Positions 1-32,375 of a stretch of 64,000 bases of DNA are shown here, one piece after another. Origin of the DNA: a virus. Numbering within the stretch: position 1 is the stretch's first letter; each line of letters starts with the position of its first letter. The notes under the pieces are model-generated. The model saw nothing but the letters and a program-made list of their open reading frames with translations. It was not told the DNA's origin and searched no databases. The position numbers were made by a program, and so were the translations under genes. Where the stretch lies: IMG/VR virus record IMGVR_UViG_3300027833_000013, positions 32,001 to 96,000 of that record; one strand, 5' to 3'.

Positions 1-1622
1 TTTAATTTAACTGTAGTAACTGCGTCAGTTACTTGTAGGTATTTTCTAAAGTCTTCGTCTGCATAAAACTGTTCGCCGGAAGTTCCTACATAACCTCTAT
101 CCTGTGTAGTAACACCGCCTTTAAGTACTTCATTGAATGTGTATATTACTTCATTGTCAGTTGTGTTAGTAATTAATAATATGTCTGCACTATCATAGTT
201 TCCAATAAATTTAACATATCCTGCGCCAGTATCTTCAAACGTCGGTAATGCTGTTAATCCTGTTGTAATTACGTTAACAATAACAGAAACTAATGTGTCA
301 ATCCTAGCAGTCGCAGTTACACCTTCGTATACTATTGTAGTATCTGTAACTTGATCAACAAGTCCTAATTTAGGCCAAATAACTTCTGGCATAATATAAT
401 CAGTAATTAAATCACCGATGTGTGCATGTGTATCAATTTCTGGTACTCTGTTACCGTCTACTTGAGCAGTTTCTCCGTCCCAGTACTTTTTAGCATACTT
501 ACTAGTTACACTGTTTCCGCCATATCTTAAATCATTTAAATATCCAGTTAAGATATAACCTAAATCTCTTTCACATTTAGCTTGGTTGTATGTGTATGTT
601 AATGGCCAACAAACATCAAGCACAATTTGAGCCTTTGCTGTATCAATTGCTGCCTTGGCAGTTTGTATTGATGTAGACGCCCACGTAAGTCCTGGCACTG
701 TTCTAGTTAATGCATCTAACGAACTAGTTCCACTTTCTACAACATCTGCCACAATATCAATTAATTCGGAACATAAAATTCCTGTAGCACTGTCTGCATT
801 TGTTCCTGATGTTACTTGAACTTCTGTATTTCCAGAACTTACAGTAACCGTTTCACCTTTAACTACTTTATCAATAACTGTTTGTAAATGTCTATATGCC
901 GCAACAGTTTGTGCTTGATGTTCAGCTGTAATACCTGTGTTGCCACTTGCCGCATAATTATTAAAGAATTTAGCACTATCATAGCTTGCACTATTTCCGC
1001 CATATAAGATATCGTACGTTGCGGCATATAATGCATATTTTGTATCTCTAGTACACTTAGCAATATCATGATTGTGTGCTGGATAAGTTACGTCAACCCA
1101 TGCATTAACTTCGGCTGCCATAAAGTCTAAGTTTGCAAGTATTTTACTTTTAGCGGCAATGACATCAGCAGTAGCATCTGACGGATTTGTGTAAGTTGGT
1201 GCATTAGCATTAGCTCTTCCATTTTGTGCAATGTCGTCAACCTCAACAAAGAATGCATTTGATCTTGAAACAGCATCAGCATCGGCTACTACTTGAGTAA
1301 GTGCGGCAACTGCTAATTTAGCTCTAGCAATTGTTCTGTACACAGTTGGAGATAAATCTAAACTGTTAACTTCTGCAAGTCCTAAAAAGTATGCGTTATA
1401 CGTTGACTCTAGTCCGACATCCCAAGCAACTCCGTCAATCATATATCCTATATCACGGTGACATTTTGTTGCATCTATAACTTCTTTATTAATATAAGCA
1501 ATACTTTCTGCAAGTAAAAAAGCTCTATTTGCTTTAAGTAATGAGTATGCATTAGGGAAAAGGTTTTCCGCATATCCCATTCCAGGTTTAAATTTGTAAT
1601 TATTAATTCTCTTCTTTGCCAC
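1..1622 (-). CDS. Large virion/appendage protein, partial (runs off the left edge), with three KCxRD helical repeats
   Basis: Absent from the ORF track, presumably because it has no stop in the window. Partial manual translation from GTG at 1622 (AGGA upstream): MAKKRINNYKFKPGMGYAENLFPNAYSLLKANRAFLLAESIAYI...KCHRDIGYMIDGVAWD...KCTRDTKYALYAATYDILYGGNS...KCERDLGYILTGYLNDLRYGGNS. Confidence 0.8.
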   Translation of the reverse strand, partial: MAKKRINNYKFKPGMGYAENLFPNAYSLLKANRAFLLAESIAYINKEVIDATKCHRDIGYMIDGVAWDVGLESTYNAYFLGLAEVNSLDLSPTVYRTIARAKLAVAALTQVVADADAVSRSNAFFVEVDDIAQNGRANANAPTYTNPSDATADVIAAKSKILANLDFMAAEVNAWVDVTYPAHNHDIAKCTRDTKYALYAATYDILYGGNSASYDSAKFFNNYAASGNTGITAEHQAQTVAAYRHLQTVIDKVVKGETVTVSSGNTEVQVTSGTNADSATGILCSELIDIVADVVESGTSSLDALTRTVPGLTWASTSIQTAKAAIDTAKAQIVLDVCWPLTYTYNQAKCERDLGYILTGYLNDLRYGGNSVTSKYAKKYWDGETAQVDGNRVPEIDTHAHIGDLITDYIMPEVIWPKLGLVDQVTDTTIVYEGVTATARIDTLVSVIVNVITTGLTALPTFEDTGAGYVKFIGNYDSADILLITNTTDNEVIYTFNEVLKGGVTTQDRGYVGTSGEQFYADEDFRKYLQVTDAVTTVKL

Positions 1623-1625
1623 GTT

Positions 1626-2585
1626 CTAAATTCCTAATGCAATTGCAAGTGCCGTTGCTGTTGAGTCTACGTACTTCTTATTACTTATGTCAGTTGAAGC
1701 AGTAGCATCCTTAGTCACGGTAGCCGCAGTAAATGCCGCTGTTGAAGGAGATGTTGCTCCTATCGTAGTTTTGTTAATAGTAGTATCTGTTACCGGAACA
1801 GTAGATCCTAATGTTGTAATAATGCCACTTTGGCTTCCTCCTACAACAATTTCAATTTTATTTCCTGCGTCTAAAACAATGTTTGTTCCAGCAGTAAATG
1901 ATGCTACGCCTAATCCGTTTGCATTAATGCCAGTTGCAGTTAGTGTACCGCCTACAAACATATCTTTAGTAACACTTGCGCCGCCTGCAACTGTTAGCGC
2001 ACCTTCGCCTATTTTAGTTGAATTAGCAGTTGATGTTACTGCTAATGTTAATAAGCCTGATGCTCCAGTAACTACTAAGTCGCTAAAACTACCTGTGCCT
2101 GTTACTATTGGATCAACTACTGTAATAGTGCCCTTTGGTGTACCGTCTGCATCACCATAATATAATGTTGCAGGTGCATCGGCAGCAACTGAAATAACAA
2201 CTTTACCTGAAGTTTTACCTTGGGCCGCAAATCCTTGTGATATTATATTGTCTGTTGCAGTATGTGCTATACCTGTGTTGTAAAGTGTCGAACCGTCTGT
2301 ATTAATTAAATTAAATGTAATAGTTGATAGTGCAAGTGTAAAAGAGTATGATGTGCCTCTAGTAAATTCTATAGACGGATTATTAGATGCAGGAACAGTA
2401 AAATCGTCACTTGCTAATCTAAAATTAGAACTTACTTCTGTTACAGAGTAATCACCTGCACTGCTAGAAGTGCTTCCGCCAACATACTGTAACGAAGTAA
2501 CAACGACATTACCTGTTTCATCGACAGTAAATCCCGGACTCTTAAATCCATGATCTGATTCAAATTGACGGTATTCTATAGCCAC
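1626..2585 (-). CDS. Fibre-like virion protein with degenerate cupredoxin-like segment and C-terminal ALAIALG tail
   Basis: T/G/S-rich; NPSIEFTRGTSYSF...APATLYY segment; NKKYVD...ATALAIALGI end. Start moved to GTG 2585 because GGAG lies 8 nt upstream. Confidence 0.65.
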   Translation of the reverse strand: MAIEYRQFESDHGFKSPGFTVDETGNVVVTSLQYVGGSTSSSAGDYSVTEVSSNFRLASDDFTVPASNNPSIEFTRGTSYSFTLALSTITFNLINTDGSTLYNTGIAHTATDNIISQGFAAQGKTSGKVVISVAADAPATLYYGDADGTPKGTITVVDPIVTGTGSFSDLVVTGASGLLTLAVTSTANSTKIGEGALTVAGGASVTKDMFVGGTLTATGINANGLGVASFTAGTNIVLDAGNKIEIVVGGSQSGIITTLGSTVPVTDTTINKTTIGATSPSTAAFTAATVTKDATASTDISNKKYVDSTATALAIALGI

Positions 2586-2606
2586 TCGACACACTCCAAT
2601 ATAATG

Positions 2607-2624: not shown

Positions 2625-3014
2625 TTACGTATGGCTACGGAAATATGTTGCAGAAAAATATGCCTTTGCTCCTTTATCTGCAGGAGTTTTAGGGTTAAGA
2701 ATTAGTTCAACGTAAGAATTTGTTACAGAAGCAGTAATTGTAACTAAGTCACGTGTTGTGCTTGCCCTTCCGTATACTACCACCGACGCACTATTTGGCG
2801 ATGCTGTTAGTAATACCTTAATTACTTCTTTAATATCTTTACCTAGTTCAACGTTAAGTGTATATTCGGCAGAAGAAAAATCGCCCATGTGCCAACGATC
2901 GATTGCTAGATCTTGTTGAACGTTTTGCCACAATCCTTCATAAGAGAAGTGCGTACTACCTTTTAACAAGATAGTATTTCGCAGGCCTTTTTTTAGAAAC
3001 TTAGTTAAATCCAT
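2625..3014 (-). CDS. Small beta-rich virion structural protein
   Basis: 129 aa ORF with its own late promoter (GATAAATA 3039-3046), in a structural context. Confidence 0.5.
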   Translation of the reverse strand: MDLTKFLKKGLRNTILLKGSTHFSYEGLWQNVQQDLAIDRWHMGDFSSAEYTLNVELGKDIKEVIKVLLTASPNSASVVVYGRASTTRDLVTITASVTNSYVELILNPKTPADKGAKAYFSATYFRSHT

Positions 3015-3050
3015 TATAGTATCCTAATGTCTATAATGTATTTATCGACA

Positions 3051-4862
3051 TTAAGTATTGACAACCGTTACAAGTTTTCCAAATTCAGGCAAATATAAAT
3101 ATTCGATTTCGCTTTGCTGTAGTGTCCAAATAGCATCTTCAAGTGTTTCAACTAAAGGTTCACCGCCTAAGTTAAAGCTAGTATTAAAGATAATTGGACA
3201 TCCTGTCTTTTCTTTGAATGCTTTAATTAATGCGTAGTACAAAGGATTTTGTTCTTCAGTAACGGTTTGAATACGGCAAGTTCCGTCTACGTGAATAATA
3301 CTTGGAATCTTTTCTGCAATACCAGGCTGGCAATTTACAGCATACATCATATGTGGACTATTTTCCATGCCGCGTAAATCAAACCATTCATGTACGTCTT
3401 CTTCTAAGATACTACCAGCAAATGGACGAAAGTATTCACGATGCTTAACTTCGTTAACAAAGTCTTTTCCATCTTCAAATGTAGGATCAAATAGTACACT
3501 TCTGTTGCCTAACGCACGTGGTCCGTTTTCACTCTTGCCTTGGAACAAGGTAACAATCTTTTTCTGTGTTAGTAATTCTACTATATCAGAGTCAGATGCA
3601 TCAGTAATAGTAACACCGCTAACATTTGTTTTAGTAACAATGTCGTCTAGTGTATAATTATTGTCAGGTCCTAAGTATAATGACTGTGTTTGCTTAACTT
3701 TAGAATCTTCTTCTAACCCGTACCAAAACATCATTGCCGCACCCATTGCTGTGCCGGCATCATTTGATACTGGTTCAACATATATCTCAATTCCGTCGTC
3801 TTTAAGGGCGTCTAAATAATGATAGTTAGCAACACAGTTTAATCCGTAGCCACCACTAATAACTACTTTTTTCTTACCAGTTTCGTTTACAGCATGTCTT
3901 ATTAGTTGAACAACTTGGTCTTGTGTTTCGATTTGACATGCATATGCCATATCCCGTCTGCTTTCTAAATGTGTTAAGTCTTCATCTTGTTTTTCCATTT
4001 GATTAACTTCATTTAAAAATTGGTAAATTCCACTATTTACTATAGCACCATTAGGATAATTAGGGACAATAACATTTCTGTTTGACAACGGGTAAATTGA
4101 TTCACTATCAAACAATTTAGGGATTGCATCATTTGGTTTACCATATGGAAATAATCCCATAGTCTTGCCTGCTTCAATGCCGCTCCATCCACAGTATTGT
4201 GTTACTGCTTCGTACACTTTAACAATACCTGCTCTATCACTTACGATAGCAGTATGCGTTTGGCCGTTTTCACCAAACATATCTGATGGCATTGTTGTGC
4301 CTCCGCCTGGGATTGGTTCTCTAGTACCGTATACTTTAAACTTGGTACTAAAATCTGCAGGATAATCACAGTCAATAATACTCTCAACTTCCCAACTCAT
4401 TATTTGTTCGTTGTTTATAGCTAATGGTATGAACGTACCTGCGCCATCAACAATTACACTTACTGCGCTATCAAATCCGCTTCTATAAAATGCACATGCA
4501 CTATGGAGTTTGTGATGCATAAATGCTAAGTCAACAACTTGTGGATGATCATAAGATGTTGTGTTTGCTTTTTGATCAATTAGGCCTAATTTACGTGCTA
4601 AGCCGGTATACATATCATCGCCACTGTAATCAATTTTGCCGGCAGTTTCTTTTAACGGTTGTGTATGTGCAATTACAAGATAGTCAATTTTATCAGTATA
4701 ATCTAAAATCTTAACCATACTTGCAAATGGCCCGCCGTCGTACTTTTGCCTAGACAGTCTTTCTTCTTCTACTGAAAATACAACTTCTCCATCTTTAAGT
4801 AAACATACTCCGGAGTTATGTCCTCTTGCAATTGCCGCAATCCAAATTGGTTTAGTGCTCAT
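3051..4862 (-). CDS. O-carbamoyltransferase, NodU/CmcH/TobZ family
   Basis: Motifs EEERLSRQKY, HHKLH, AGKTMGL, GGYGLNCVAN, NDAGTAMG, GPRALGNRS, KHREYFRPFA, HVDGTCRIQTV, NTSFN. Confidence 0.93.
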   Translation of the reverse strand: MSTKPIWIAAIARGHNSGVCLLKDGEVVFSVEEERLSRQKYDGGPFASMVKILDYTDKIDYLVIAHTQPLKETAGKIDYSGDDMYTGLARKLGLIDQKANTTSYDHPQVVDLAFMHHKLHSACAFYRSGFDSAVSVIVDGAGTFIPLAINNEQIMSWEVESIIDCDYPADFSTKFKVYGTREPIPGGGTTMPSDMFGENGQTHTAIVSDRAGIVKVYEAVTQYCGWSGIEAGKTMGLFPYGKPNDAIPKLFDSESIYPLSNRNVIVPNYPNGAIVNSGIYQFLNEVNQMEKQDEDLTHLESRRDMAYACQIETQDQVVQLIRHAVNETGKKKVVISGGYGLNCVANYHYLDALKDDGIEIYVEPVSNDAGTAMGAAMMFWYGLEEDSKVKQTQSLYLGPDNNYTLDDIVTKTNVSGVTITDASDSDIVELLTQKKIVTLFQGKSENGPRALGNRSVLFDPTFEDGKDFVNEVKHREYFRPFAGSILEEDVHEWFDLRGMENSPHMMYAVNCQPGIAEKIPSIIHVDGTCRIQTVTEEQNPLYYALIKAFKEKTGCPIIFNTSFNLGGEPLVETLEDAIWTLQQSEIEYLYLPEFGKLVTVVNT

Positions 4863-5732
4863 TTAAAATCCTCTGTATTTGTTACCTTGCCATTCAGGCA
4901 AGTCTTTATAAATTGTTTCACAAAACAAATTAAAGTCTTTGTGCGTATCTTTGTACATTGTGTTAACTTTATCTATCCATTTTTTTGATATTTTACTTAA
5001 ATCCTGGCTATTATTAATCTTAGGTTTTACTTGGGTTAGTAAATATTCTGCATGTTGATCAATACTAGGATGCCTGTCAGTAATAGTCTTAAATTTATTA
5101 TTAACTCCAAGAAACTTATAATGGGGAATACTACTATTCCACGCAGTAGTGCCAACTGGTTTAATCCAGTTATTATTAGAAATTAATTCTTTGTAGATTG
5201 ATAAATTGGGCATGTCACTCCATATATTATCAGTACTGCCTACTTCGCCGTGCAAACTGTCTGGATAATCTGAATTCATTTTTTCAATTTCTCCCATACT
5301 AGTCATATACCAATTGCAATCTATACTTTTTAAAAGTCCTTGTGCTAATACAATATTGTTTAACATGTGCATAGTATAACTAGTTTCGTCCCAAAATGTC
5401 TTAATCCAGTTATCGTCATAAAGTTCGGCATTAATATAATTAAAAATACTTCCGCAAGTTTTCCAGCCAACGTTAGAACTAACGCCTCTGCGACGATCAT
5501 CAGTTGTATGATAATCATTTCTTAAATGACTAGTCCATTGAATAATTACCGTATCATTTTTTGTAATATGTTCTCTAGCATGGAGTTCAACTAAGCGTTC
5601 GCATATTGCACGATTACCTAATCCTGGATATCCCCAGTTTTCATATACTTCAAACTCTGTGCCTAACATATCAGCCCAGGTAGGCCAAGCATAATTTGTA
5701 AAACTACAACCTAATACAAAGAGTCTTGACAT
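4863..5732 (-). CDS. SGNH/GDSL-like hydrolase or acyltransferase
   Basis: N-terminal LGCSFT (GDS-like block I), N-x-G-x-x-G-x-G-N block, IIQWT, C-terminal DRHPS (D-x-H). Confidence 0.6.
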   Translation of the reverse strand: MSRLFVLGCSFTNYAWPTWADMLGTEFEVYENWGYPGLGNRAICERLVELHAREHITKNDTVIIQWTSHLRNDYHTTDDRRRGVSSNVGWKTCGSIFNYINAELYDDNWIKTFWDETSYTMHMLNNIVLAQGLLKSIDCNWYMTSMGEIEKMNSDYPDSLHGEVGSTDNIWSDMPNLSIYKELISNNNWIKPVGTTAWNSSIPHYKFLGVNNKFKTITDRHPSIDQHAEYLLTQVKPKINNSQDLSKISKKWIDKVNTMYKDTHKDFNLFCETIYKDLPEWQGNKYRGF

Positions 5733-6734
5733 TTAAGTATCTTTAGACTCTGTTACAACAGTTTCTTGAATAGCAACTGGTTCGGCATCACTGCTAGTAT
5801 GTATTAGTGTACCATTAACAACACCGACTACATAATTAACAATTTTGTCATCCATTGCCATTAAACTTTCGTTTGAACGATTTGTTGATTCTTCTTGGGT
5901 GATACGAATTGGATCGTAAATTCTAGTAGTTTCACCCAAGTCTAATACGGTAAAGTTGTCTGCGTACGGATAGGAAACATTTACTGGAAATGTCGATCCG
6001 TGTACCGCAGTAGTTGTAGTACCTACACAGTATGCTAAATGTTGTCCAACACTATCGCAACCTAAAAAGTGATCAGCATATTTAATCATTGATGCCCATT
6101 GTCTTATATTCAATCCTTCAGGCATAGCTATTTCGTTTTTTAAACCTTCGCCTTTAAGATCAATTTTAAGTTCGCTCATCATAACAATAGCGTAATCTTT
6201 TTCTAGATCCTTTAGCATTAACTTTACATCTTTAAATTCAAAACTTCTAGCAGTATGATCAACTGGAGTGTCGTCGATAATCTCAATGCCGCGACCAAAT
6301 GGTTGAATTACTAATAATTTTTCTTTTTTAAGTTTCTCTTTAACTTCATTGATTAGCCTGCGACCTACAAGTAATTCTTCTTTGCTAAGTTTCATTGTAG
6401 GTTTAGGTAATTCTCGCACACCTTGGTTATTTAACTCAATATCAAATGCTTGTGCTAGACTGCACTTTTGATTATAATATTCCCAAACTCTGTATGGTTC
6501 TGGATATACTACATCTCTACTTTTTAATACATCTTTAAATAAATTTTTGTGCCACGGGTCGTAAGCCCTTGCATCTAATGTCGGGTGGCCTTTGAACATA
6601 TCAGTTCCGCCTTCGCACACAATTACAAAGTCAGTATCACCCGAATCTTGTTCGTATAATTCTAGTGCTGGGATGGAACACAGCATTCTGCCTGCGCCCC
6701 CGTTTAAAAAAAATGCTTTTGATCTAGTTGTCAT
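5733..6734 (-). CDS. Glycosyltransferase, GT-B / GT9 (heptosyltransferase)-like
   Basis: N-terminal GGAG...SIPAL, VIQPFG, and IKYADHFLGCDSVGQHLAYCVG, which resembles the GT9 DSGxxHxA motif. Confidence 0.7.
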   Translation of the reverse strand: MTTRSKAFFLNGGAGRMLCSIPALELYEQDSGDTDFVIVCEGGTDMFKGHPTLDARAYDPWHKNLFKDVLKSRDVVYPEPYRVWEYYNQKCSLAQAFDIELNNQGVRELPKPTMKLSKEELLVGRRLINEVKEKLKKEKLLVIQPFGRGIEIIDDTPVDHTARSFEFKDVKLMLKDLEKDYAIVMMSELKIDLKGEGLKNEIAMPEGLNIRQWASMIKYADHFLGCDSVGQHLAYCVGTTTTAVHGSTFPVNVSYPYADNFTVLDLGETTRIYDPIRITQEESTNRSNESLMAMDDKIVNYVVGVVNGTLIHTSSDAEPVAIQETVVTESKDT

Positions 6735-6754
6735 GTTACCTCGTTATACTCCAT

Positions 6755-6810
6755 AAAAAAAGACTGGGTCCAATAATATATATCAAGTATACACCATGAA
6801 CCCAGTCTTT
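6755..6810 (-). terminator. 14-bp hairpin followed by a U-tract (terminator/attenuator-like)
   Basis: Minus strand AAAGACTGGGTTCA-(24 nt)-TGGACCCAGTCTTT-TTTT between the structural genes and the enzyme cassette. Confidence 0.55.
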
Positions 6811-6833
6811 ACTGGATTGAGATAATAGTTAAC

Positions 6834-7544
6834 TTAGCCGTTAGCTTCTGGCAACTCGTAGTGCGGTAATGGTGCTTCAGGAAATGGTATTTTCCAATGA
6901 TTAATACCTGCGTATCTCACGTCTGCTGCCACTTCTTTTAACCAAACTGATCTGCTTTTTAAGAGTGCTATATCACTAGCAGATAATCCTGCTATACAAG
7001 TTTCATCTGCTACTGCCAAGTCAAGAACTCTTGCTTGTTCAGTACAGCTATCAAGTACACTCTGACGTGAGTTTACGTGCTCTCTAAGAACCGGTCCAGC
7101 CCATGTATTAGTTTGTGAGTTATATGTTAAACTTTCAGACCAATGTAAGTGCGCTAACATACCTGTTGTGCCTTCGTACTGATGAGTCCAAGTCCACGTA
7201 GTACCGTTAGCACATGTAATTTCTTCTTCGTAATCTTCAACATCTGGATGCGTATATTCATGCGTAATGTATGCACATCTCATTGCCATTTCGGCACTTT
7301 CATGTGAATCGATTAAAAGATAATCATATATGTCATGTTCATAATACTGTGGATCAATTGATCGATCATCTAAACTGTCTGATCTTCCGCCTTCTCGAAC
7401 TTGATCATCATCAAGGTCAATTTGACATAATACATATCTAGGTCCTGTGTACACACACTCAAATGTATCATCTGAGTCTGCATTAGGACTATATGGTTGT
7501 TCTGGTAACGCTACTGTGAACGTTGTTTGTGTAAATGTTGCCAT
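6834..7544 (-). CDS. Putative fibre assembly chaperone-like protein
   Basis: Acidic 236 aa protein directly after the Cys-rich fibre genes; C-terminal helix ending WKIPFPEAP resembles the Pro-rich ends of tail-fibre assembly proteins. Confidence 0.4.
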   Translation of the reverse strand: MATFTQTTFTVALPEQPYSPNADSDDTFECVYTGPRYVLCQIDLDDDQVREGGRSDSLDDRSIDPQYYEHDIYDYLLIDSHESAEMAMRCAYITHEYTHPDVEDYEEEITCANGTTWTWTHQYEGTTGMLAHLHWSESLTYNSQTNTWAGPVLREHVNSRQSVLDSCTEQARVLDLAVADETCIAGLSASDIALLKSRSVWLKEVAADVRYAGINHWKIPFPEAPLPHYELPEANG

Positions 7545-7568
7545 TGTTTTTCTCTCTCCAATTTTAAT

Positions 7569-8531
7569 TTATGTTGCGACAAATCTAATTTTAATTATAG
7601 CATCGCCGCCTGCCCAACCGTTATCTCTAACGCCTGAACAAGGTGTAGCCGCTGGCCCGCCGGATCCGTGTGGTACGTACATTGTACAACCTTGTGTATC
7701 GTAGCACTGGCATATTCTTGCACCGTCCCAGCACTCAGTCCATGACGTACCTTGACTCGGCATACGACTCATTGCGTTTAGTGCTTGTATATATCCCTGG
7801 AACCCCATACCTGACCACTCAGAGTGGCCGTTGTCACTATCAAGACCATAAGAAACAACTCCGCCACATTCACTAAAGTATCCAGGAGCAATTGGAACAT
7901 GGTGTATTGTACTACAGTTACAGTTTGGATAACAGTGCCAGTAAGTACTGCAACCAATGTTTCCCATTTTGTTTTGGCCACTGTCTCCACCGTATGCACA
8001 TGCACACCAAGCACCTGGACAATGGTTACATACAAGTCCACAATATCCACTGTATGTTGTTCCGCAAAAGCCGTTCGCCATCATACAACATCTACGTGCT
8101 GTACCTGTAGTACAGAAACTAGTTCCTGATCTACCGCCTTCGGCACATATACAACCGTTTGTGCCGCCAGCTGTCCAACACGCCATTCCAGCTTCCGAAC
8201 ATCCTCTGTTACAAAGTCCATTACCTCTACAACTTTTGCCTGCTCGCATACAAATGTAACAGCCACTTGCCATTGCCAAATTGCTTCTTTTAACATAAGC
8301 TCCGCTGTTTCCAGGCAATGTTGCTGTACAACAGCACTGTCTCGAGCCCGATCCGCCTGCGCCGATTACTTCTAATTCTACTGTTCCTGCTGCCGGTGCA
8401 ATCCAACAATGACAGCCACCGTATGTAGTATAATCAGTAACAGTAGAAAATGCAAACATTTTACCTGTTTCTAAATTATCTTCAGCCGCTGGAGGCGATC
8501 GTGTTGCTAATATTGATTGTAATGATGCCAT
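7569..8531 (-). CDS. Cys/Gly-rich virion protein, paralogue 1
   Basis: 32 Cys in 320 aa by hand count; glycine-rich domain signature CWIAP..GTVELEVIGAGGSG and C-terminal GGDAIIKIRF. Confidence 0.75.
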   Translation of the reverse strand: MASLQSILATRSPPAAEDNLETGKMFAFSTVTDYTTYGGCHCWIAPAAGTVELEVIGAGGSGSRQCCCTATLPGNSGAYVKRSNLAMASGCYICMRAGKSCRGNGLCNRGCSEAGMACWTAGGTNGCICAEGGRSGTSFCTTGTARRCCMMANGFCGTTYSGYCGLVCNHCPGAWCACAYGGDSGQNKMGNIGCSTYWHCYPNCNCSTIHHVPIAPGYFSECGGVVSYGLDSDNGHSEWSGMGFQGYIQALNAMSRMPSQGTSWTECWDGARICQCYDTQGCTMYVPHGSGGPAATPCSGVRDNGWAGGDAIIKIRFVAT

Positions 8532-8542
8532 CTAGCTACTCC

Positions 8543-9499
8543 TTAATTCTCTATAAACTTAATTCTAATTGCACCTTGGCCACCTCTGTGACCATGGTCT
8601 CTTACGCCAGGACAAGGAAATGCTCCGTGTCCGCCAACACCATAAGGAACAGTACTTTGACATCCGTTAGTGTTATAACACCCACAGCTCATGTCGCTTC
8701 TATAACATGCTTTCCATGGTATTCCACTTCCTGGTGATCTACCTGCACCTGCTAACATTGCAACAGTTTGTCCGTAACCCATACCTGACCAACGCGACGC
8801 TGAACTGTCATTTGAGTTAGCAAATCCAACAACTCCGCCGCACTCTGCAATCATTCCTGGAGGAAATGCAACATATGATCTAAAGAAACAAATGCATCCT
8901 GGGTAACAACCATGATAACCCATACAACTAATATTTCCGCATCTATTTACATCTCCGCCATATGCAATAGCGTCCCATTGTCCTGAACATTGGTTACAAA
9001 TAGTACCGCATTGCGGTCCTACGTTAGTATTACAAAATCCGCCAGCGGTAAAGCAACAGTATAATGCTGTGTTAGTCGAACAATAGCTAACTCCGCCTTT
9101 GCCGCCTCTAGCACATAGACATCCGTTAGTAGATGTACTCGTCCAACAAACTGTTGACGGTTCTGAGCATCCTCTAAAACATAGTGCATCTGAGTTACCA
9201 CAAGCAAACCCTGTACACCCGTATAGGAAATTGCCTGTGTTCATTGTAATTGTTTTCTTTGCATATGACCCTGAATTACCAGGAATGCCGCCACCGCAAC
9301 AACACATCTTTGCACCACTGCCGCCCGCGCCCCAAACTTCAATTTGGGCTGAACCTGTAGATGTAGGACACCAACACCAGCATCTGCATGCCTTAGTATA
9401 GGTATTGCCTTCGGTGAAGCTATAAATCTTGCCAGTCTCTAAGTTATTCTCTCCGCTAGTTGGAAGCTTCGCCTTTAATAATGTTTCTAATGATGCCAT
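8543..9499 (-). CDS. Cys/Gly-rich virion protein, paralogue 2
   Basis: Colinear with paralogues 1 and 3 (MASL..LL, NLETGKI, WGAGGSG..CCC, GGD, SRWSG, CxCY, CPGVRDHG). Confidence 0.75.
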   Translation of the reverse strand: MASLETLLKAKLPTSGENNLETGKIYSFTEGNTYTKACRCWCWCPTSTGSAQIEVWGAGGSGAKMCCCGGGIPGNSGSYAKKTITMNTGNFLYGCTGFACGNSDALCFRGCSEPSTVCWTSTSTNGCLCARGGKGGVSYCSTNTALYCCFTAGGFCNTNVGPQCGTICNQCSGQWDAIAYGGDVNRCGNISCMGYHGCYPGCICFFRSYVAFPPGMIAECGGVVGFANSNDSSASRWSGMGYGQTVAMLAGAGRSPGSGIPWKACYRSDMSCGCYNTNGCQSTVPYGVGGHGAFPCPGVRDHGHRGGQGAIRIKFIEN

Positions 9500-9527: not shown

Positions 9528-9860
9528 TTATACTGCGCCAATGATCCAACCGTATGTGCTACCACTATACGTTAGAGTAACAATTGCGCCGGATACGTCA
9601 ATGGTTAAATCTTCAGTTGCTCCATTAATTTTAGCACTGTTACGCCCAATAGTAATATTGTTAGATTGTGCATTACCTGCAATGTCTAATATTTGTATTG
9701 TGTCGCCTACAAGCACCGACGAAACTGCCGGTAATGTAATAGTATATGCAGAACTAGCCATATTAGCTAATATCCTGTCATTTACTACAGCACTATAAGT
9801 AGTACTAATTTCTCTGTTTGTAACACCGGCTGTACCGATTGTTGTAATATATCTTCCCAT
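9528..9860 (-). CDS. Small fibre-junction-like structural protein
   Basis: TITLPA..VGDTIQILD.AG...NNITIGRN..KING...DLTID...TLTY...YGW pattern typical of tail-fibre joint domains. Confidence 0.55.
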   Translation of the reverse strand: MGRYITTIGTAGVTNREISTTYSAVVNDRILANMASSAYTITLPAVSSVLVGDTIQILDIAGNAQSNNITIGRNSAKINGATEDLTIDVSGAIVTLTYSGSTYGWIIGAV

Positions 9861-9881: not shown

Positions 9882-10205
9882 TTAAGTAGCGGTTGAGGTT
9901 TCAATCCCCATTACTACAGCTGAAATATTTGCCGAACTGCAATATGCAACTATTTTTTGCGTGGCAGCTAGAACAATACCTGTTCTCTCTAGCACCCCTT
10001 TAGCAAGAATTTCTACATCATACTCGATGTATTCGCCGTTTGTCGGTGTATCTAAAGCCGCTACTGCAATACGCATTGTTACTGCTTGGTTGCCTCTATT
10101 AACAAGGTTTAACGAAGCAATTGTATATGTGTCTGCTGGACATGCATATACAGTTGTGTTTGTTGCTCCGGATAAATCCGCTTGTCCTAGTCTTCCTGTT
10201 GCCAT
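9882..10205 (-). CDS. About 110 aa beta-sandwich adaptor-like protein, paralogue A
   Basis: Similar in size and pattern to 21013..21342 and 32379..32717. Confidence 0.5.
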   Translation of the reverse strand: MATGRLGQADLSGATNTTVYACPADTYTIASLNLVNRGNQAVTMRIAVAALDTPTNGEYIEYDVEILAKGVLERTGIVLAATQKIVAYCSSANISAVVMGIETSTAT

Positions 10206-10220
10206 TTTCTCTTCTCCATT

Positions 10221-13200
10221 TTAGTTCAGTAAGAACATCTGTAATGCTACTGGTGCACCAGTTATCCCACCTTTGAAGTTCACAACATTATTTATGTTAA
10301 TTGGACCTCCACTAGTAGTAGATATTTGATTTTCAGTAATTTCAATTACACCTGCTGTTACACTGTTAACATTCAAAGTAGCAACACCGCCACCAATTTG
10401 TGATGTAATATAAGTTTTAATTGCTTTTTGTGTTGGTACAATACTGTCACTATCTGCACTGAATGTACCGTCTGTACTAAATTCACTAATAACTGCGCCT
10501 GCGCCGCCTAATGCAACACTACCTAGTTGTAGTTCATTTAGTCCACTAATATTAAACGCTTCAACGTTTAGTGTAGCAATACCCGTAGCCTGTTCAACGT
10601 TGAACAATCCGCCAACCCTAAAGTTACCATCTTGGTCAGTACTTGTGTAAAATACTCGTCCGCCGCCAAAGTTATTTGTTTCAACTAATGGATCAGGAGC
10701 TGATAATGGATCCTGTGGGTAATTAGTATTAGTAAAGTTACCAGTACCAATGTCTAAGAAATCGTGCCCTGTTAATCGTACTTGACTAAAACGTCTTCTT
10801 ATTGTAATTGCATCTAAGTGCGGTGGACGTTCGTCTGCCTCTAATTTAGGACTAATTTGAAGCAATGCACTATACGGGCCGTTGCCTACTAAGTTAGTAA
10901 TTGCTACTAGTTTATACCATGTATTTGACCTACTTGCAAATTCTACGTTCGAACCTTTTTGCGGAATTACTGATAAATTATCAACTCTTACTTTAGTACC
11001 AGTTTGATTAATATCAGCAAAACCGTCACCGTCTATAGTAGCCGTTGCTGTAATATATCCCGAGCCTCTATTAGAGAACGTAGGTTGTCTTAATACTCCG
11101 TTACCTACTCTAACAGTGTGTGCCATTTCAATAGTATTATTTGGATCTACTAGTGTCATTACCGGTGGACTAGATATACTATATCCTGTGCCCGGTTCAA
11201 TGATTCTAATTTCAATAACTTTCTCATCTGATACTCTTGCTCTACCCCTAGCCCTAATTCCACTTGCTGGTGCTTCAAATATCACCCTCGGTGATATAAT
11301 ATATGCAGTTGTTGAATCTAGAGTTGATGCTATAGCTGAACCAATTGCATGATTCCAACCTGCTGTACCATCTGAGTCTTTAAATACTGTTGCTACTTTA
11401 CTGCCGGAGTTAAATGTACCAATAACACCATATTGTCCAGCACCTAATCCACTAGTAATATAAATGCTCATTCCGTTGTATGCACCTGTTGCATTAACAT
11501 CAGTTGCCGCTAAACTAATTTGTGTTGTGTTGCCTGCTTGTGCATTACTTGCAACTTCTTTATATCCGTCTCCGCCATAAGTAGTACTGTCTGAATCAAT
11601 TTGTACTTCAAACACACCACCTGTTGCAATATTAGTAGCACTAACTGCCGCTCCAAATCCGTCTCCTCCAATAGAGTAACGAGTGGCAGCACCTATTGTT
11701 GCAACATCAAATGTACAGTTAGCCGCGCCACCACCACCAACTAAACTATCAACAACTGTAATAGTATCGTTTTCTGCGTGTCCCGTTCCGCCTTTAACAA
11801 CTGATACTGCATAAGTGCCATTAGATTCGACTTGTAGTGAAAATTCTTGTCCTGTGCCTGATCCTGTACTCGTTCCAACAATGCCATGATATGTTCCTTG
11901 AACTCGAAGATTATCAAATCCACTAACTGTGTCAACAGTTAATATAGATGATGTTTGCTCAGTAGTATATCCTTGGCCTGCATTTAAATATTCAAACTGT
12001 AATACTTGTGCTGATCCATCAGTAAATACTGCCGCAACTTGCGCTTCAAGTTGTTGGTTATCAATTCTACCTGTTACAGGAGTTTCAGTTGCATCAATAC
12101 CTTCAGCTACTGATCCAAAATCACCATAAGAGTTGTTACCGTTAGTAGCACGAACTTTACCACCTGATTCTGCAAGGTAGCCAATGTGGCAATAGTAAGT
12201 AAACACAGAAACAAGTTCTGCTCTGCCCAATTCGCTAACCCAAAAGCCAATGCCGTCACTTAAAATCTGTGTAAAGTCGTTTGCAACAATACTGTCATTG
12301 CCGCCGTTGTGTATTGAACCGTCTACTTTTAAACCAATACACGCTGTACCAAAGTTTGATACGTTTTGTACGTATGGGGACTTATTAATAATCCATCCGC
12401 GTGTATCGTCTGGACCCCAACCTGGATCTAAACTTACAAATGCGCCTGCGCTTGGACGCTTAGTACCAAACGAGTTTGCACTACTTAAAGTACCTTCTAA
12501 TCCACTTAATGAACAGTTTCTTAAACCAGTGCCGTTGCGCATATAAAACATATCTTCTAGTTGATTGTTTGCAACTGAGTTAATATAAAAACGTCCTGCC
12601 ATAAACACGTTATAGTTTGAATCGTATATTAAGTCTATTTTAACTGCATCAAGATATCGGTTGACATCACGTGTACAGGCTGCTATAGTATATGAGTAAC
12701 TTCCGTACGTTGCCGCAATATAAGCATGAACCTCTGCAATCATATATGCTCTGTTTTGTTCGAGCACTTCTACAGCGTAAGTGTATCCAGTAGATGTTAT
12801 AGGAGTATTAGATCCTCGATATAGCGGAACTGTACTATCTCCAGATGCTCCGTTAATACCGTAATCAATATAATCAGCTAATTCAGTAAATAAGTTTGAT
12901 GCATATGCACCTGCTGCCGAACTACCTGCTGGACGAGTTACTACTTGTGTTGCCGAGTTTCCTGATGACTCTGTAACATTTGCGTTTGTTACAATGCTTG
13001 AAGCTATTGCCGCTAGTCTTGCAATTGCCGCTAAACTTTTTGGAACATCTTCAGATGAAGTAACAGTTCCTGCAGGGCTAATTTTAGTTGAGCGCAATTC
13101 ATCGCCTACAACCGCTGTATCTTCAGGTACTCTAATTGGAAGTGTTTCAAAGAATTGTCCTGTTTTCACAAATACTGTTTTTTGCGCACGAGTCTCTTTT

Positions 13201-21012: not shown

Positions 21013-21342
21013 TTATACTATATCTACGTAACTTATAATAGCATCACAACTATCATTTAAATTACTTTGTATTAGCAATGAATTGTTTGCAGGGATAATT
21101 AATTTTTCTCCCCCAAGCATTGCTTTAAAACTACTGTTCGGTGCTACCATTACGTCTTTCATAAAGTAGCCTTCTACACTTGTATCGTCTTTAACATAGA
21201 TATTTACATTTACTGCAAAGTCTGTTATGTTTGCAACGTTAATGCCTAGCACAGTTGCATTAGTTGATCCGTCACTTGCAAACACTTCGATCTTCTGTGT
21301 TCCAATACTCTTAATAATTTTATTTCTAAAAAATGTTGCCAT
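21013..21342 (-). CDS. About 110 aa adaptor-like protein, paralogue B
   Basis: T.VLG.NVAN...GEKLII pattern shared with paralogues A and C. Confidence 0.5.
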   Translation of the reverse strand: MATFFRNKIIKSIGTQKIEVFASDGSTNATVLGINVANITDFAVNVNIYVKDDTSVEGYFMKDVMVAPNSSFKAMLGGEKLIIPANNSLLIQSNLNDSCDAIISYVDIV

Positions 21343-21346
21343 ATCT

Positions 21347-24300
21347 TTATCCTAATGCTAAAACGTATTCTAATGCTAATGCTTCAGCATCACTAAAACT
21401 AATGCCGCCGCTGGAACCTGCAACTGATACCCAGTTAGTTCCGTCAAATATTTCTACTCGAGCCGCTGTTGTATTATATCGTGTCATCCCAACTTCTGAA
21501 TCTGCAAGAAGTGGTCTTGCTCCATCAGCGCCGCTCGGAATAACAATTCCTTTTGTACCTGCAAACTTAAAATAACCATTACCTGTTGTTTCAAAAATAG
21601 TTCTAGAATTCGAAACAGTATTTGTAATAGTATTATCTTTAATACTAAAGTTATCTATTACAACACTACCAGTGCCGTTAGCAAGTAAGTTTAAGTCTGT
21701 ATTAGTACTTAGCGTTGTAATAGTACTGCCGCTAATTTCTATATCATCTACTTCTAATTTGTTTGTGTAAAACTTGGTTGCATCTAAACTAGCAGTGAGC
21801 GAGCCGCTATTATAAAATCTAATAATATTATCATTTGCACCTGGTGTATTTTCTGTTGTAATATACGTATCATTATCACTATCTTTTAAAGATGTGCTTA
21901 ACTCAACCCAGCTACCGTTGTACCCTTCAAACTTGTTAGTCGTTGTATTATAACGTGTCATACCAGTTACTGGGCTTGTATTTCTCTGTGCAGTAGTGCC
22001 TTTTGGTAGTATCATAGCATCAGTACTAGTAACTTGCATTATACCCGATGCCGGAGTTAATATCATGTCGCCGTCTGTACTTAAAACATTTGTATTAAAA
22101 CTAAAGTTTCCTGTAGTAACACTCCCTGTGCCATTTGCTCGTAATTCTAAATCACTGTTACTATCAGTTGTAGTAATAAAGTTGTCGTCTATTAATATAT
22201 CACCAGTAGTAAAACTACTTGCTGTAATTCTTCCTGTGCTATCTAATTCGTTAAGGGTTACTGTCCCAATAATTGTAAGATCATTTGAAATAACAACATT
22301 ATTATTTGGAATACTAATATTACCAGTGCCGTTAGCACGTAGCTCTAAATTACTATTACTAGCAGTAGTAGTAATGAAGTTATCGTCTATTCTAATATCT
22401 TCAAAGTTTGCAATACCAGTTACAGTTAATGTGCCGGTAATTAACGCATCGCCTGTATTAAATTGCCCACTAGTTTGTACATTTGAAAAGTTTGTAGTAC
22501 CATTAACAGTTAGGTTATTTGTAACAACAACATCGTTGTTTGGTATAAGAACATCTCCAGTACCGTTTGCTCGTAATTCTAAATTACTATTAGATTGCGT
22601 TGTTGTAATAATGTTATCATTAATTTCAATGTCTTCAAAGTCAACTTGACCTAATATAGTCATGGTATCGTTAACTACAATATTTTTTACCGTGACATCA
22701 CCAGCAGTTACAGAATCTAGTAATGTATTTCCACTTACTGTTAGATTATTGTCAATTACTACGTTACTTGATGAAACTCTAACAACACCTGCACCAACTG
22801 CTTCTAGTTCTAAATCACTATTAGTATCAGTTGTTCTTAATAAGTTTCCAGTAATTTGTATGTTTTCAAAAAACGCTTGCCCCAATATAGAAGTAGTACC
22901 AGTTACATTTAAGTTTCCACTTATTGTTGCTGTGTCACTAACGTTTAAGTTTTGTGGAGTAAACGCACCTAATACGTTTAAGTTCTGTTCAATAACTAAG
23001 TTATTACCCGGTAATCTAATAACACCTGTGCCATTGGCACGTAATTCTAAATCACTATTAGTATCAGTTGTACTAATAATGTTGTCGTCGATTTGTATGT
23101 TTTCAAATTGAAATGCACCAGCAACACTTAATGTATTAACAGATAAGCTGTTGGCTGTAATATTTCCACTTGCTGTAAGATTAGAAAGTGTTGTTGTTCC
23201 GGCAACACTTATATTACCAGTAACTTCTAAATCACTACTAGGTATAATAACATCACCTGTACCAGCAGTTCCTATTTCTAAATCGCTGTTTGTATCTGTT
23301 GTACTAATTGTATTATTTTGAATATTAATATTTTCAAAACTTGCTTGCCCGGCAATAGTTACGCCGCCGGATACATTTAAATCTCCTGCTACAGTAGTTG
23401 ATCCTACAGTTTGAGTTATGTTACCGGTCACTTGTAAATCGTCTTGTGCAACTACGTTTCCGGCAAAGGTTGCAGTTGAATCAAACTGTGTTGTTCCGCT
23501 AACTGTAAAGTTATTATTTGGAATTGACACTGTTCCCGAGCCATTTGCACTAAGTTCCAAATCGCTGTTAGATTCTGTTGTGCGTATTTTATTTCCGGTT
23601 ATTAAGATACCGTCAATATCTAATACGTTTGCATAGACATTATTCCACCGCTTAGTAATTGAACCTAAGTTATATACTGCATCTAAGTTTGGAATTAAGT
23701 TACTGTCGATGTCTCCAGTAAATTGTATACCATCAGTATCTGCATCACCGATAGTGATGTCTCCGCCAATTGTAACATTTCCTGTTACATCTAAGTTTCC
23801 TGTTATGCTAGTATTGTCAGCAAGCACTATACTTCCTGACACACTTGCTATTGTCATATCAGTAGTAAGTGTCTTTATTGTACTACCTTGGATTCTAAAG
23901 TCGCCAGTTTCAATCTTAGTACCATCAATAAAGGTTGTGTCCGAGCCTGTTTGGAACGTTAAACCGTTAGTAGTAATAACTTCTAAGTTTGCTGTATTAA
24001 ATTGAACTTGGCCTGTTTCTTGATCAACAAAAAATGCATCACCAACTCTAAAGTCACCCCTATGGTCAACACTAGTAAAGTTAACCTTAGCTGAGTTAGC
24101 TTCGACTACTTCATTAGCTTGTACAACTGTTGACTTATCATTATCAATAGCTTTGCCGTTGCCAATATATGCAAAGTTTTGTCCAACCAAATACATAATA
24201 ACACCAGGGCCGTCGCCGTATGCTCCGTATGTACCATACACGTTTGCACTGCCAATTGATCTAAGTTCTCCGCCAAAGTCTGTAACATCAAATAAGTCAA

Positions 24301-30896: not shown

Positions 30897-31853
30897 TTAG
30901 CTTTCGATGTATTTCATCCGTACTGCTCCGCTACCGCCGCGCCAGCCGTGATCTCTAACACCTGGGCATGGATTTGAAGCAGGGCCGCCTGAACCATAAG
31001 GTACGTGTTGCTGACAACCCAACATTTCATAACACTGACACGCTCTGTTACCCATCCAACACGAGCCGTGAAACACGCCTGTGGCTGGATTTCTACTTGC
31101 CGCGTTAAGTGCATTTACATATTGATGCATTCCTTGGCCCGACCAACGTGAGTAAGGATTATCGTCTTCAGTAGCGTAAGTTACTGTTGTACCTTTTGTA
31201 CTTATTACGTTTGCCGGCAATGCAACATGGAAGTAGAACATACAAGTACAAGCAGGATAGCATCCAAGGAAACTTGCACAACTATAAGGACCACAGCAAT
31301 TAACATCACCGCCGTATGAACATGGAGTAAATCCTCCACTACACATATTACATACTATTCCACAGTTCGGACCTCTGTTTGTTGTGCAAAATCCTGCCGC
31401 TCTAAAGCAACAGTACATACTAGGTGTTGTTGAGCAAATACTATTTCCGCCTTTGCCACCTTGTACACACATACAACCGTTTGTACTTGAACTAAACCAA
31501 CATACTGCTGAATTTGATCCACATCCTCTGTCACAAAGCGATGAGGCATTTCCGCAAGATTTGCCCATACATCCACAAGCTCTATTGCCCGATGTTACGT
31601 TATATGATTTTTTACCATACGCTGCCGCATTACCAGGAATGCCGTGACCACAGCAACACATTCTAGAACCCGAGCCGCCTGCGCCCCACATTTCTAAGTC
31701 TACTGTTCCGGTTCCCGGTGCAATCCAACAAAAGCCGTGACACATACATCCGTACATTGATCCGTTGTCATATGCCCAAATTTTACCTTGTTCGAGGTTA
31801 CCTTCCGCTTGGGTAAAGTTTTTGCTACCTAGTAACGATTTTAGTGATGCCAT
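30897..31853 (-). CDS. Cys/Gly-rich virion protein, paralogue 3
   Basis: Colinear with 7569..8531 and 8543..9499. Confidence 0.75.
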   Translation of the reverse strand: MASLKSLLGSKNFTQAEGNLEQGKIWAYDNGSMYGCMCHGFCWIAPGTGTVDLEMWGAGGSGSRMCCCGHGIPGNAAAYGKKSYNVTSGNRACGCMGKSCGNASSLCDRGCGSNSAVCWFSSSTNGCMCVQGGKGGNSICSTTPSMYCCFRAAGFCTTNRGPNCGIVCNMCSGGFTPCSYGGDVNCCGPYSCASFLGCYPACTCMFYFHVALPANVISTKGTTVTYATEDDNPYSRWSGQGMHQYVNALNAASRNPATGVFHGSCWMGNRACQCYEMLGCQQHVPYGSGGPASNPCPGVRDHGWRGGSGAVRMKYIES

Positions 31854-31874: not shown

Positions 31875-32375
31875 TTATTTATCAAAGTTATGAAGCACTG
31901 TAACTGGCTTACCGATCGGAGGTGCTGACGTAAATCTAATATACCAGCCTGCACCTTTACCTGCTGGATTTTGTATTAAGTCATAGTTTGTAATTGCAAT
32001 TTGAAATACAGTTTCTACTAGCACTAATATGTTTTGTGCGGCTAAAGGAACTGGACTATCATTATCTCCATTGTTTAACGGACCAAAATCAACTTCGCTT
32101 GCATCACCTACACCTAAATTTTGCTGTACAATATTTACAGGCTCTTGTCTTTTTAATTTAGCCCATGTACCGTTTGCATAAGATTCATGCGCCGAAGTTT
32201 CTGTATTATATCTAATCATTCCGTTAGCTGGAAACACTGGACGACTTGCAGTATTACCCATAGGAACTACTACTGCTTGTTCGCCACCTAACTGAACAAT
32301 TTGATTAATGTCATATTTAACACCAACTGCTTTAATGTTTCTTACGCTTGTACTTTGTGCTTTGATTAATCTCAT
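31875..32375 (-). CDS. Structural protein with a GMIRYNT fibre domain
   Basis: VPMGNTASRP...GMIRYNTET motif also found at the C-termini of the long fibres. Confidence 0.55.
   Translation of the reverse strand: MRLIKAQSTSVRNIKAVGVKYDINQIVQLGGEQAVVVPMGNTASRPVFPANGMIRYNTETSAHESYANGTWAKLKRQEPVNIVQQNLGVGDASEVDFGPLNNGDNDSPVPLAAQNILVLVETVFQIAITNYDLIQNPAGKGAGWYIRFTSAPPIGKPVTVLHNFDK

Follow-up and report, generated by a model that had tools for sequence, protein, structure and literature searches.

We analysed a 64,000-nt stretch of DNA (the window, bases 32001-96000 of the 169-kb IMG/VR virus record IMGVR_UViG_3300027833_000013) from a phage whose nearest isolates are T4-like cyanomyoviruses of the Kyanoviridae. 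The subject is a module near the start of the window in which genes for cysteine-rich (Cys-rich) proteins are followed by genes for three enzymes: a GT9-like glycosyltransferase, a protein of the SGNH fold and an O-carbamoyltransferase. The whole fibre/enzyme module lies on the minus strand. In the order of transcription, the gene of a 1698-aa fibre protein is followed by two small genes (s107 and s110), two Cys-rich paralogues (CysA and CysB) and p236; after a 99-nt gap come the GT9-like, SGNH-like and carbamoyltransferase genes, and then p129, p322 and the beginning of the gene of another fibre protein (2477 aa). The two junctions between the enzyme genes are both TAAATG, with 0 bases between the stop and the next start. 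This layout of two Cys-rich genes, three joined enzyme genes and resuming structural genes had been described in an earlier note on the window, and the open reading frames (ORFs) and junctions agree with that description. The features are as follows.

10289..10295, minus strand: T4-type late-promoter-like motif cATAAATA, 84 nt upstream of the s107 start
9882..10205, minus strand: s107, a small protein of 107 aa, always first in the module, with the same distribution among phages as the GT9-like gene
9528..9860, minus strand: s110, 110 aa, matching C-terminal parts of tail, tail-fibre and tail-spike PHROGs (phrog_31104, 1e-17)
8543..9499, minus strand: CysA, 318 aa, with 32 Cys (10.0%) and 17.6% Gly; phrog_4205
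7569..8531, minus strand: CysB, 320 aa, with 32 Cys (10.0%) and 15.9% Gly; a paralogue of CysA (45% identity)
6834..7544, minus strand: p236, 236 aa, Cys-poor, with 41 acidic and 13 basic residues
6751..6810, minus strand: hairpin (~22 bp) and a run of seven T between p236 and the GT9-like gene, terminator- or attenuator-like
5733..6734, minus strand: GT9-like glycosyltransferase, 333 aa, with the donor motif GCDSVGQHLAY kept and Arg16 in place of WaaC Asp13
4863..5732, minus strand: SGNH-fold esterase/acyltransferase-like protein, 289 aa, by its predicted fold and conserved residues; an accessory enzyme, found in some of the related loci
3051..4862, minus strand: O-carbamoyltransferase of the NodU/CmcH/TobZ type, 603 aa, by Pfam domains and motifs
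2625..3014, minus strand: p129, conserved, 129 aa, with its own ATAAATA motif at 3039-3045; structural genes resume here
1626..2594, minus strand: p322, Gly/Thr-rich and fibre-like, with an ATAAATA motif at 2607-2613
3..1622, minus strand: N-terminal 540 aa of the 2477-aa fibre protein, the rest of which lies beyond the window edge
30897..31853, minus strand: CysC, 318 aa with 33 Cys, a third Cys-rich paralogue, 52% identical to CysA

The motif at 10289..10295 is likely to be the start of the fibre-tip transcription unit. CysC, which the earlier note does not mention, has a late-promoter-like motif of its own (gATAAATA, 31875-31882), 24 nt upstream of the gene.

Predicted fibre tips and their partner protein

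The Cys content of CysA and CysB (10%) compares with a median of 1.3% among 648 ORFs from related loci that had been assigned to families and were 200 aa or longer. We modelled CysA with AlphaFold2 (AF2) from an alignment containing 63 homologues (predicted local distance difference test score, pLDDT, 82; predicted template modelling score, pTM, 0.80), and the model consists of an N-terminal helix (residues 4-11) followed by a TNF-like and glycine-rich domain. It superposed on the fibre protein gp24 of cyanophage Pam3 with a Z score of 15.9 and a root-mean-square deviation of 2.9 A over 193 residues (7ypx_A; Z 15.6 for 7yfw_a), on a tail-tip chain of mycobacteriophage Bxb1 with Z 12.4 (9d93_Qb) and on the glycine-rich (TG) domain of ALK/LTK with Z 8-9, compared to Z <=4 for unrelated structures. 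Among predicted viral structures, the model matched the orthologues of S-CAM3 and P-SSM2 and many 'glycine-rich domain', minor tail and tail fibre proteins. Pam3 gp24 consists of an N-terminal docking helix and a TNF-like/glycine-rich receptor-binding tip, and it needs the chaperone gp25, which is encoded alongside (PMC9608196). The predicted CysA protein has the same two parts, and in both phages a partner gene adjoins the fibre gene (7ypx, 7yfw). However, the sequences are only 16% identical, the window proteins contain 32-33 Cys each, including an invariant CCC, and phages of this type carry two to three paralogues that are coupled to sugar enzymes. The fold of the model supports the assignment of the Cys-rich proteins as short tail-fibre tips of the Pam3 gp24 type, and the match to gp24 and other tail proteins agrees with the earlier claim that their genes are structural.

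C66-C67-C68 and C129 are among the columns that do not vary in the Cys-rich family. In CysA, CysB and CysC the sequence MCCCG directly follows WGAGGSGA, and Cys66-68, which are invariant in 63 family members, occupy the site where ordinary glycine-rich domains have a poly-Gly run.

The partner gene p236 always accompanies the Cys-rich genes in the related loci. From its position and by analogy to Pam3 gp25, to which it is likened by position, p236 is a plausible candidate for a fibre-assembly chaperone. It had been called chaperone-like before, and this remains plausible from where the gene lies, but the functional hint consists of weak language-model feature hits (0.87-0.88, a weak lead only) to clusters carrying Phage_tail_APC or Caudo_TAP. 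A tblastn search with CysA and p236 against 50,697 phage records gave no match; as a profile search does detect the Cys-rich family in S-CAM1, P-SSM2 and S-SSM7, these blanks reflect filtering or divergence.

The three enzymes

The GT9-like protein of the window scored 20.5 bits against PF01075, below the cut-off of 22, and 19 of its 21 homologues match this family, with a best E value of 2.7e-8. A profile of the GT9-like family matched more than 4000 database clusters (90% identity), many of which are annotated as PF01075 or, in the naming of the Joint Genome Institute (JGI), as 'ADP-heptose:LPS heptosyltransferase' (LPS, lipopolysaccharide); the family is very abundant in ocean metagenomes. 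In a profile alignment and a multiple alignment, residues 226-236 (GCDSVGQHLAY) align with VDTGLSHLTAAL of WaaC and NDSGLMHVAAAL of WaaF from E. coli, in which the aligned cores of the donor motif are VDTGLSHL and NDSGLMHV, respectively. The ADP-heptose-binding motif D-[ST]-x-x-x-H-[LIV]-A is present, and D227, S228, G230, Q231 and H232 are invariant. At the N terminus, G15-R16 falls on WaaC G12-D13 both in a MAFFT and in a pairwise alignment, and the score of this N-terminal alignment was above that of shuffled sequences by ~3 standard deviations (sd) for the window protein and by 4.8 sd for the homologue from phage HJ05. In the heptosyltransferase TibC the general base is Asp110, which matches WaaC Asp13 by published superposition (PMC4358343); with an invariant Arg16 at this position, the general base used by WaaC and TibC is missing. 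The family has ~80 invariant columns, including E41, D45 and H50 as possible alternative bases. Searches of PDB sequences with the GT9-like sequence and profile returned nothing usable. Taken at the level of its sequence, the protein appears to be a divergent heptosyltransferase-like glycosyltransferase in which the donor site is kept.

A second GT9-like paralogue (51% identical) lies after the carbamoyltransferase gene in 13 of the 80 related loci described below, in which the SGNH gene is lacking (e.g. L054:12736-13686).

The SGNH-like protein had no Pfam match, and 2 of its 58 relatives touch DUF6071 weakly; no match to PDB sequences was obtained by sequence or profile. Its AF2 model, built on the 58 relatives (27-50% identity), was of high quality (pLDDT 92.7, pTM 0.92), and the top Foldseek hits in the PDB were all SGNH/GDSL proteins (TesA, rhamnogalacturonan acetylesterase, PatB), with E values of ~1e-4 and a probability of 1.0. 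Across these relatives S10, G39 and H221 never change, and N40 is kept in at least 90%. The acid motif reads D219-x-H221 where DxxH would be usual, and its conservation does not extend across the family. Relatives in 1340 clusters were detected by a profile search. The model makes it clear that this is a true SGNH-fold protein.

The carbamoyltransferase matched Carbam_trans_C at 2e-59 (200 bits) and Carbam_trans_N at 7.5e-27 (95 bits), corresponding to a Kae1-like N-terminal and a YrdC-like C-terminal domain, and its relatives in the PDB are 7xb6, NovN, GdmN and TobZ (E values 1e-61 to 1e-42). Its sequence contains H116-x3-H120, D139, GPRALGNRS at 447 and TSFN at 561. We take these motifs to correspond to the metal-binding HxxxH/Asp and the carbamoyl-phosphate site GPRALG reported for TobZ by Parthier et al. 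2012. An intact O-carbamoyltransferase of the NodU/TobZ type is strongly supported by these matches. A reading of the gene as pyrBI-like, in pyrimidine synthesis, was rejected, as the protein is of the NodU/TobZ type and not of the aspartate carbamoyltransferase type. Two cyanophage genome papers call the NodU/TobZ-type carbamoyltransferase a pyrimidine-biosynthesis enzyme (PMC9146016, PMC10436341), and these annotations would be corrected. All three identities proposed beforehand for the enzymes were thus recovered: GT9-like by the PF01075 matches of the homologues, SGNH by fold and carbamoyltransferase by both Pfam domains.

Linkage to the fibre genes and the ADP-heptose operon

We compared 80 IMG/VR loci around GT9-like homologues (54-90% identity), which are related to each other and were picked by similarity. 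Of these, 69 had at least 4.5 kb of flank and could be scored for Cys-rich genes, and 75 had enough downstream sequence to be scored for the carbamoyltransferase. Two to three Cys-rich, Gly-rich ORFs were present in 69/69 loci, with a median of 781 nt between them and the GT9-like gene; 75/75 contained the carbamoyltransferase. In a profile search of isolates, 10/10 were concordant for the GT9-like and the Cys-rich genes: S-CAM1, P-SSM2 and S-SSM7 have three, two and three Cys-rich copies at the cassette, respectively, together with the GT9-like gene, and both families were absent from Syn9, S-PM2, S-SM1, S-SZBM1, S-SSM5, S-RIM44 and P-SSM7 (with S-CAM1, P-SSM2 and S-SSM7 as the positive control). 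The adjacency of the two is kept at 44% GT9 identity (P-SSM2) and in a different gene order. The coupling of fibre genes and enzymes is real: the gene-neighbourhood analysis that had been suggested as a check of it was concordant in every scorable locus and isolate, and the coupling survived an inversion. In the two loci concerned (L059 and L062, 10001-17807), the module of GT9-like, SGNH and carbamoyltransferase genes is inverted relative to the fibre genes and still adjacent to them, and the Cys-rich proteins are short (250-256 aa).

The earlier note had also named independence of the enzymes from the fibre genes as an observation that would count against its proposal. The GT9-like gene was never found without Cys-rich genes in the 69 loci and 10 isolates, but paralogues of the carbamoyltransferase do occur apart from them in other cyanophages, beside ThyX, 2-oxoglutarate (2OG) oxygenases or psbA. 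Carbamoyltransferases linked to GT9-like are at least 44% identical to that of the window, whereas those in other contexts are at most 40% identical. In S-RIM44 (L096:3364-5607), a paralogue split into two ORFs lies directly after ThyX, and the paralogue of Sf-CH3 is also next to ThyX; this context is closer to that of DNA-modifying carbamoyltransferases than to that of the fibre-linked one.

The accessory enzymes vary by clade and comprise the SGNH protein, a second GT9-like protein, a second carbamoyltransferase or a 2OG oxygenase; the SGNH gene was found in 17/80 related loci and the second GT9-like gene in 13. Such clade-dependent variation is as expected for glycan diversification. In S-SSM7, a 2OG oxygenase and a second, shorter carbamoyltransferase (L088:13049-14622) stand in place of the second GT9-like gene.

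Published cyanophage genomes already list these genes under the label 'LPS genes', and we found no paper linking them to Cys-rich fibre tips of the Pam3 type. The cassette in question, T4-GC 302-308 of P-SSM2, S-SSM7, S-CAM1/3 and P-SSM5 (PMC3037559), contains orthologues of the window's GT9-like protein (44-55% identical) and carbamoyltransferase (47-63%), and the upstream order is alike, with a tail fibre gene, two small genes, two to three Cys-rich genes and the partner gene. Its function has been left open in the literature, the genes being described as 'LPS genes' and possibly as 'stuffer DNA' (PMC3037559). The window phage differs in the SGNH-fold gene between the GT9-like and carbamoyltransferase genes, and in its ADP-heptose genes, which are detached and form a separate, convergent operon ~7 kb away.

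This ADP-heptose operon, likewise absent from the earlier note, lies just outside the window, at record positions 21283-26192 (L086:6284-11193), and converges with the far end of the 2477-aa fibre gene. Its products are an HldE-like kinase/nucleotidyltransferase, an HldD-like epimerase, a HAD phosphatase (GmhB-like), a cupin, two 2OG-Fe(II) oxygenases and a 263-aa protein (L086:7965-8756). The operon is without a GmhA of the SIS type, and a NUDIX gene lies just upstream (L086:5789-6262). The two oxygenases are of the prolyl-hydroxylase type and could create hydroxylated acceptor residues. Heptose genes directly follow the carbamoyltransferase gene in S-CAM1, P-SSM2 and 11 IMG/VR loci, the latter number referring to genes within the flank. 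Cyanobacterial LPS has been reported to lack keto-deoxyoctulosonate (Kdo) as well as heptose (PMC4390846), so that the phage would need its own heptose pathway, and the canonical acceptor of GT9 enzymes would be removed. In the inner core of Pseudomonas LPS, WaaC/WaaF together with the carbamoyltransferase WapO (PA5005) have been proposed to make 7-O-carbamoyl-heptose (PMC8005017). As the phage likewise combines a GT9 enzyme with a carbamoyltransferase of the NodU type, carbamoyl-heptose is its most likely product by the same chemistry. The two systems differ in that the Pseudomonas acceptor is Kdo-lipid A within the bacterium, whereas the window genes are viral and stand among fibre genes, in a phage whose host LPS is reportedly heptose-free. 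Thus, the sugar is most likely heptose, and the product is probably carbamoyl-heptose with clade-specific O-acyl tailoring.

Proposed function and its alternatives

Carbamoyl-heptose decoration of the phage's own fibres is in our view the most likely function of the module, and it holds about half of our confidence. The three Cys-rich paralogues would be short receptor-binding fibres with an N-terminal docking helix and a TNF-like/glycine-rich tip; these tips would be made late and probably folded with the help of the acidic p236. The phage would make ADP-heptose through its own operon of HldE, GmhB-like, HldD-like and cupin genes, the GT9-like enzyme would transfer the heptose onto a virion protein, most likely the Cys-rich fibre tips, and the TobZ-type enzyme would O-carbamoylate the sugar, as proposed for the 7-O-carbamoyl-heptose of the Pseudomonas LPS core (WapO). 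In the window's clade, the SGNH-fold enzyme would add or remove an O-acyl group. In this way the host-recognition tips would come to be coated with a variable glycan. The analysis shows which genes are present, how their products fold, how they are linked and that late-promoter motifs lie at the fibre genes, whereas we infer which sugar is donated, what accepts it, in what order the reactions proceed and how the phage would benefit.

Two known systems offer precedents. In mycobacteriophages, phage-encoded glycosyltransferases beside structural genes reportedly decorate virion proteins (Freeman et al. 2023, as cited in PMC12801897); the glycosyltransferase families, the sugars and the targets (capsid, tail tube) differ from those of the window cassette. 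Virion glycosylation was experimentally shown in that case, whereas the window cassette is known here from its genes. For O-heptosylation of a protein the precedent is TibC, a bacterial autotransporter heptosyltransferase (BAHT; PMC4358343). TibC and Aah are GT-B heptosyltransferases that use ADP-heptose on a beta-rich surface adhesin encoded next door (PMC4358343), and they are the best mechanistic precedent for protein heptosylation. TibC has the catalytic Asp110, an iron-finger and a dodecameric ring, whereas the phage enzyme has Arg at the position of WaaC Asp13, and no closer relation between the two was found than that to the GT9 family in general.

The signals around the enzyme genes complicate the question of when they are expressed. 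In the 99-nt gap before the GT9-like gene, a 22-bp hairpin is followed by seven T (minimum free energy -35.8 kcal/mol, z -6.0). Among relatives (intergenic regions before GT9-like of L006-L056), 31 distinct ones keep the hairpin, and many of its changes are compensatory (one pair is C-G in 13 and U-A in 17); its loop contains a conserved TATATA(A/T)T motif, and it looks like an intrinsic terminator or attenuator. A scan for sigma70 promoters and terminators listed no promoter in this gap and also missed the long-loop hairpin. S-CAM1-type relatives instead have a terminator and, after it, immediately ahead of the GT9-like gene, late-type motifs (CATAAATA or CTAAATA); in some relatives a terminator and a sigma70-like promoter may overlap. 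The enzymes thus form a distinct expression unit, possibly reached by attenuated read-through from the late fibre promoter and possibly by an early promoter.

Several observations weigh against decoration of the fibres. Arg16 does not vary among 21 homologues, and those from Aeromonas and Vibrio phages have it too; with the canonical catalytic Asp of GT9 replaced, activity is not assured. In the window, the terminator-like hairpin splits the fibre genes from the enzymes, no ATAAATA motif was found before the GT9-like gene, and one subgroup of relatives has a sigma70-like TTGTAC-17-TATAAT inside the hairpin, which would mean early expression. Late expression, as expected in the earlier note, is favoured by the motif scan at s107 and CysC but not at the GT9-like gene. 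The distribution of s107 is the same as that of GT9-like, and block inheritance may account for part of the linkage pattern. The cyanophages with published virion proteomes that we checked (Syn9, S-PM2, S-SM1 and S-SZBM1) do not have the cassette, and T4-GC 297-302 are without proteomic evidence in the supplements of Sullivan 2010. In the published reading, these genes serve to modify host LPS or the cell wall (PMC3037559; PMC12801897). The original proposal that the enzymes decorate the adjacent fibres is thus backed by the enzyme identities, the fibre fold and the linkage, but the hairpin and motif scan give no support to co-expression, and carbamoyltransferase paralogues occur elsewhere.

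The published reading leads to the alternative that the enzymes put carbamoyl-heptose on a surface glycan of the host during infection, their position beside the fibre genes being incidental; a block of superinfection, or progeny kept from sticking to debris, would be a possible benefit. GT9 enzymes classically act on LPS cores, which agrees with both this literature and the JGI names of many homologues, and the enzyme operon is a separate unit, as seen from the terminator-like hairpin, the inversion in L059 and L062 and the possible sigma70-type promoter inside the hairpin of some relatives. However, the reported lack of Kdo and heptose in cyanobacterial LPS (PMC4390846) takes away the canonical GT9 acceptors, the GT9-like gene never occurs without Cys-rich fibre genes (69 loci, 10 isolates), the distant homologues of Aeromonas and Vibrio phages also lie within tail-gene blocks, and S-CAM1-type relatives carry late-promoter-like motifs directly before the GT9-like gene. 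We regard remodelling of the host envelope as rather unlikely, though deserving of serious attention. The claim that host LPS is not the target therefore gains support as far as canonical LPS heptosylation is concerned, while a wider remodelling of the envelope stays a rival.

The loss of the general base raises another alternative, in which the GT9-like protein is not a working transferase but a sugar-nucleotide-binding or fibre-binding assembly factor, and the carbamoyltransferase and SGNH protein act on something else, e.g. a small molecule or metabolite. The invariant Arg where WaaC (and, according to the published superposition, TibC) has its catalytic Asp, the score of the window protein below the Pfam cut-off and the truncation of the Vibrio homologues to 244 aa would all fit. 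On the other hand, the donor motif and ~80 invariant columns are kept, with E41, D45 and H50 among them as possible bases, and the strict partnership with the carbamoyltransferase (75/75) and the frequent ADP-heptose genes would make little sense without transfer; we find this alternative improbable. We give even less credence to DNA hypermodification, i.e. the addition of heptose and/or carbamoyl to 5-hydroxymethylcytosine (5hmC) of the phage DNA. A phage 5hmC carbamoyltransferase of the same family does exist (PMC8670742), phage GT-B enzymes can put heptose on 5hmC (bioRxiv 10.1101/2023.12.21.572611), and cyanophage carbamoyltransferase paralogues lie next to ThyX in S-RIM44 and Sf-CH3. Yet the published DNA heptosyltransferase resembles T4 beta-glucosyltransferase (beta-GT) and not GT9 (bioRxiv 10.1101/2023.12.21.572611), the identity gap (at least 44% versus at most 40%) sets the GT9-linked carbamoyltransferases apart from those in other contexts, and the neighbours are fibre genes and not genes of nucleotide metabolism. 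Moreover, a ThyA-like hydroxymethylase (PF00303) was not found in the record or in the complete genomes of S-CAM1, P-SSM2 and S-SSM7, and a C5-methyltransferase (PF00145) was not found in the record. DNA modification is unlikely, in agreement with the earlier view that DNA is not the substrate.

In cyanophages of Prochlorococcus and Synechococcus, the GT9-like family is part of the host-recognition module. If the fibres are indeed decorated, the 'LPS' auxiliary genes of large cyanophages, which have lacked an explanation for twenty years, would now count as genes of virion construction, and protein heptosylation and sugar carbamoylation would join the known modifications of phage virions. Variation of the glycan through the SGNH protein, the second GT9-like protein and the second carbamoyltransferase would then add a new dimension to host range, to stability or to escape from host defence.

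Finally, GT9-like homologues of ~25% identity, with a G-G-x-G-R loop and the canonical D-T/S-x-x-x-H-I-A-A motif, lie inside tail-gene blocks of two other phage groups. In Aeromonas phage HJ05 (L087:5303-7918), the homologue follows a 559-aa fibre-like protein with 23 Cys, which is the Cys-richest among the HJ05 ORFs of at least 200 aa (genome median 0.9%). In Vibrio phage SBP1 (Schitoviridae; L098:4998-8519), a tail protein of 925 aa with 41 Cys comes after the homologue, and in Vibrio the homologues are truncated (244 aa). In both groups these neighbours are the large tail proteins richest in Cys. When the profile of the Cys-rich family was compared with the C-terminal, Cys-rich part of the HJ05 fibre protein, no significant match emerged (probability 0.4), so that the likeness is compositional and positional only. 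Nevertheless, the association of GT9-like genes with Cys-rich tail proteins across phage groups is suggestive, and we count it in favour of fibre decoration. One might imagine that the Arg-for-Asp GT9-like enzymes are S-glycosyltransferases that put (carbamoyl-)heptose on Cys thiols of the fibre tips, in common to cyanomyoviruses, Aeromonas myoviruses and Vibrio N4-like phages, but we think this a long shot. S-linkage to Cys is speculation; its hints are circumstantial, namely that Arg replaces Asp and that Cys-rich proteins adjoin the gene in three phage lineages. Another region with a distant GT9-like homologue is L099:5001-5738.

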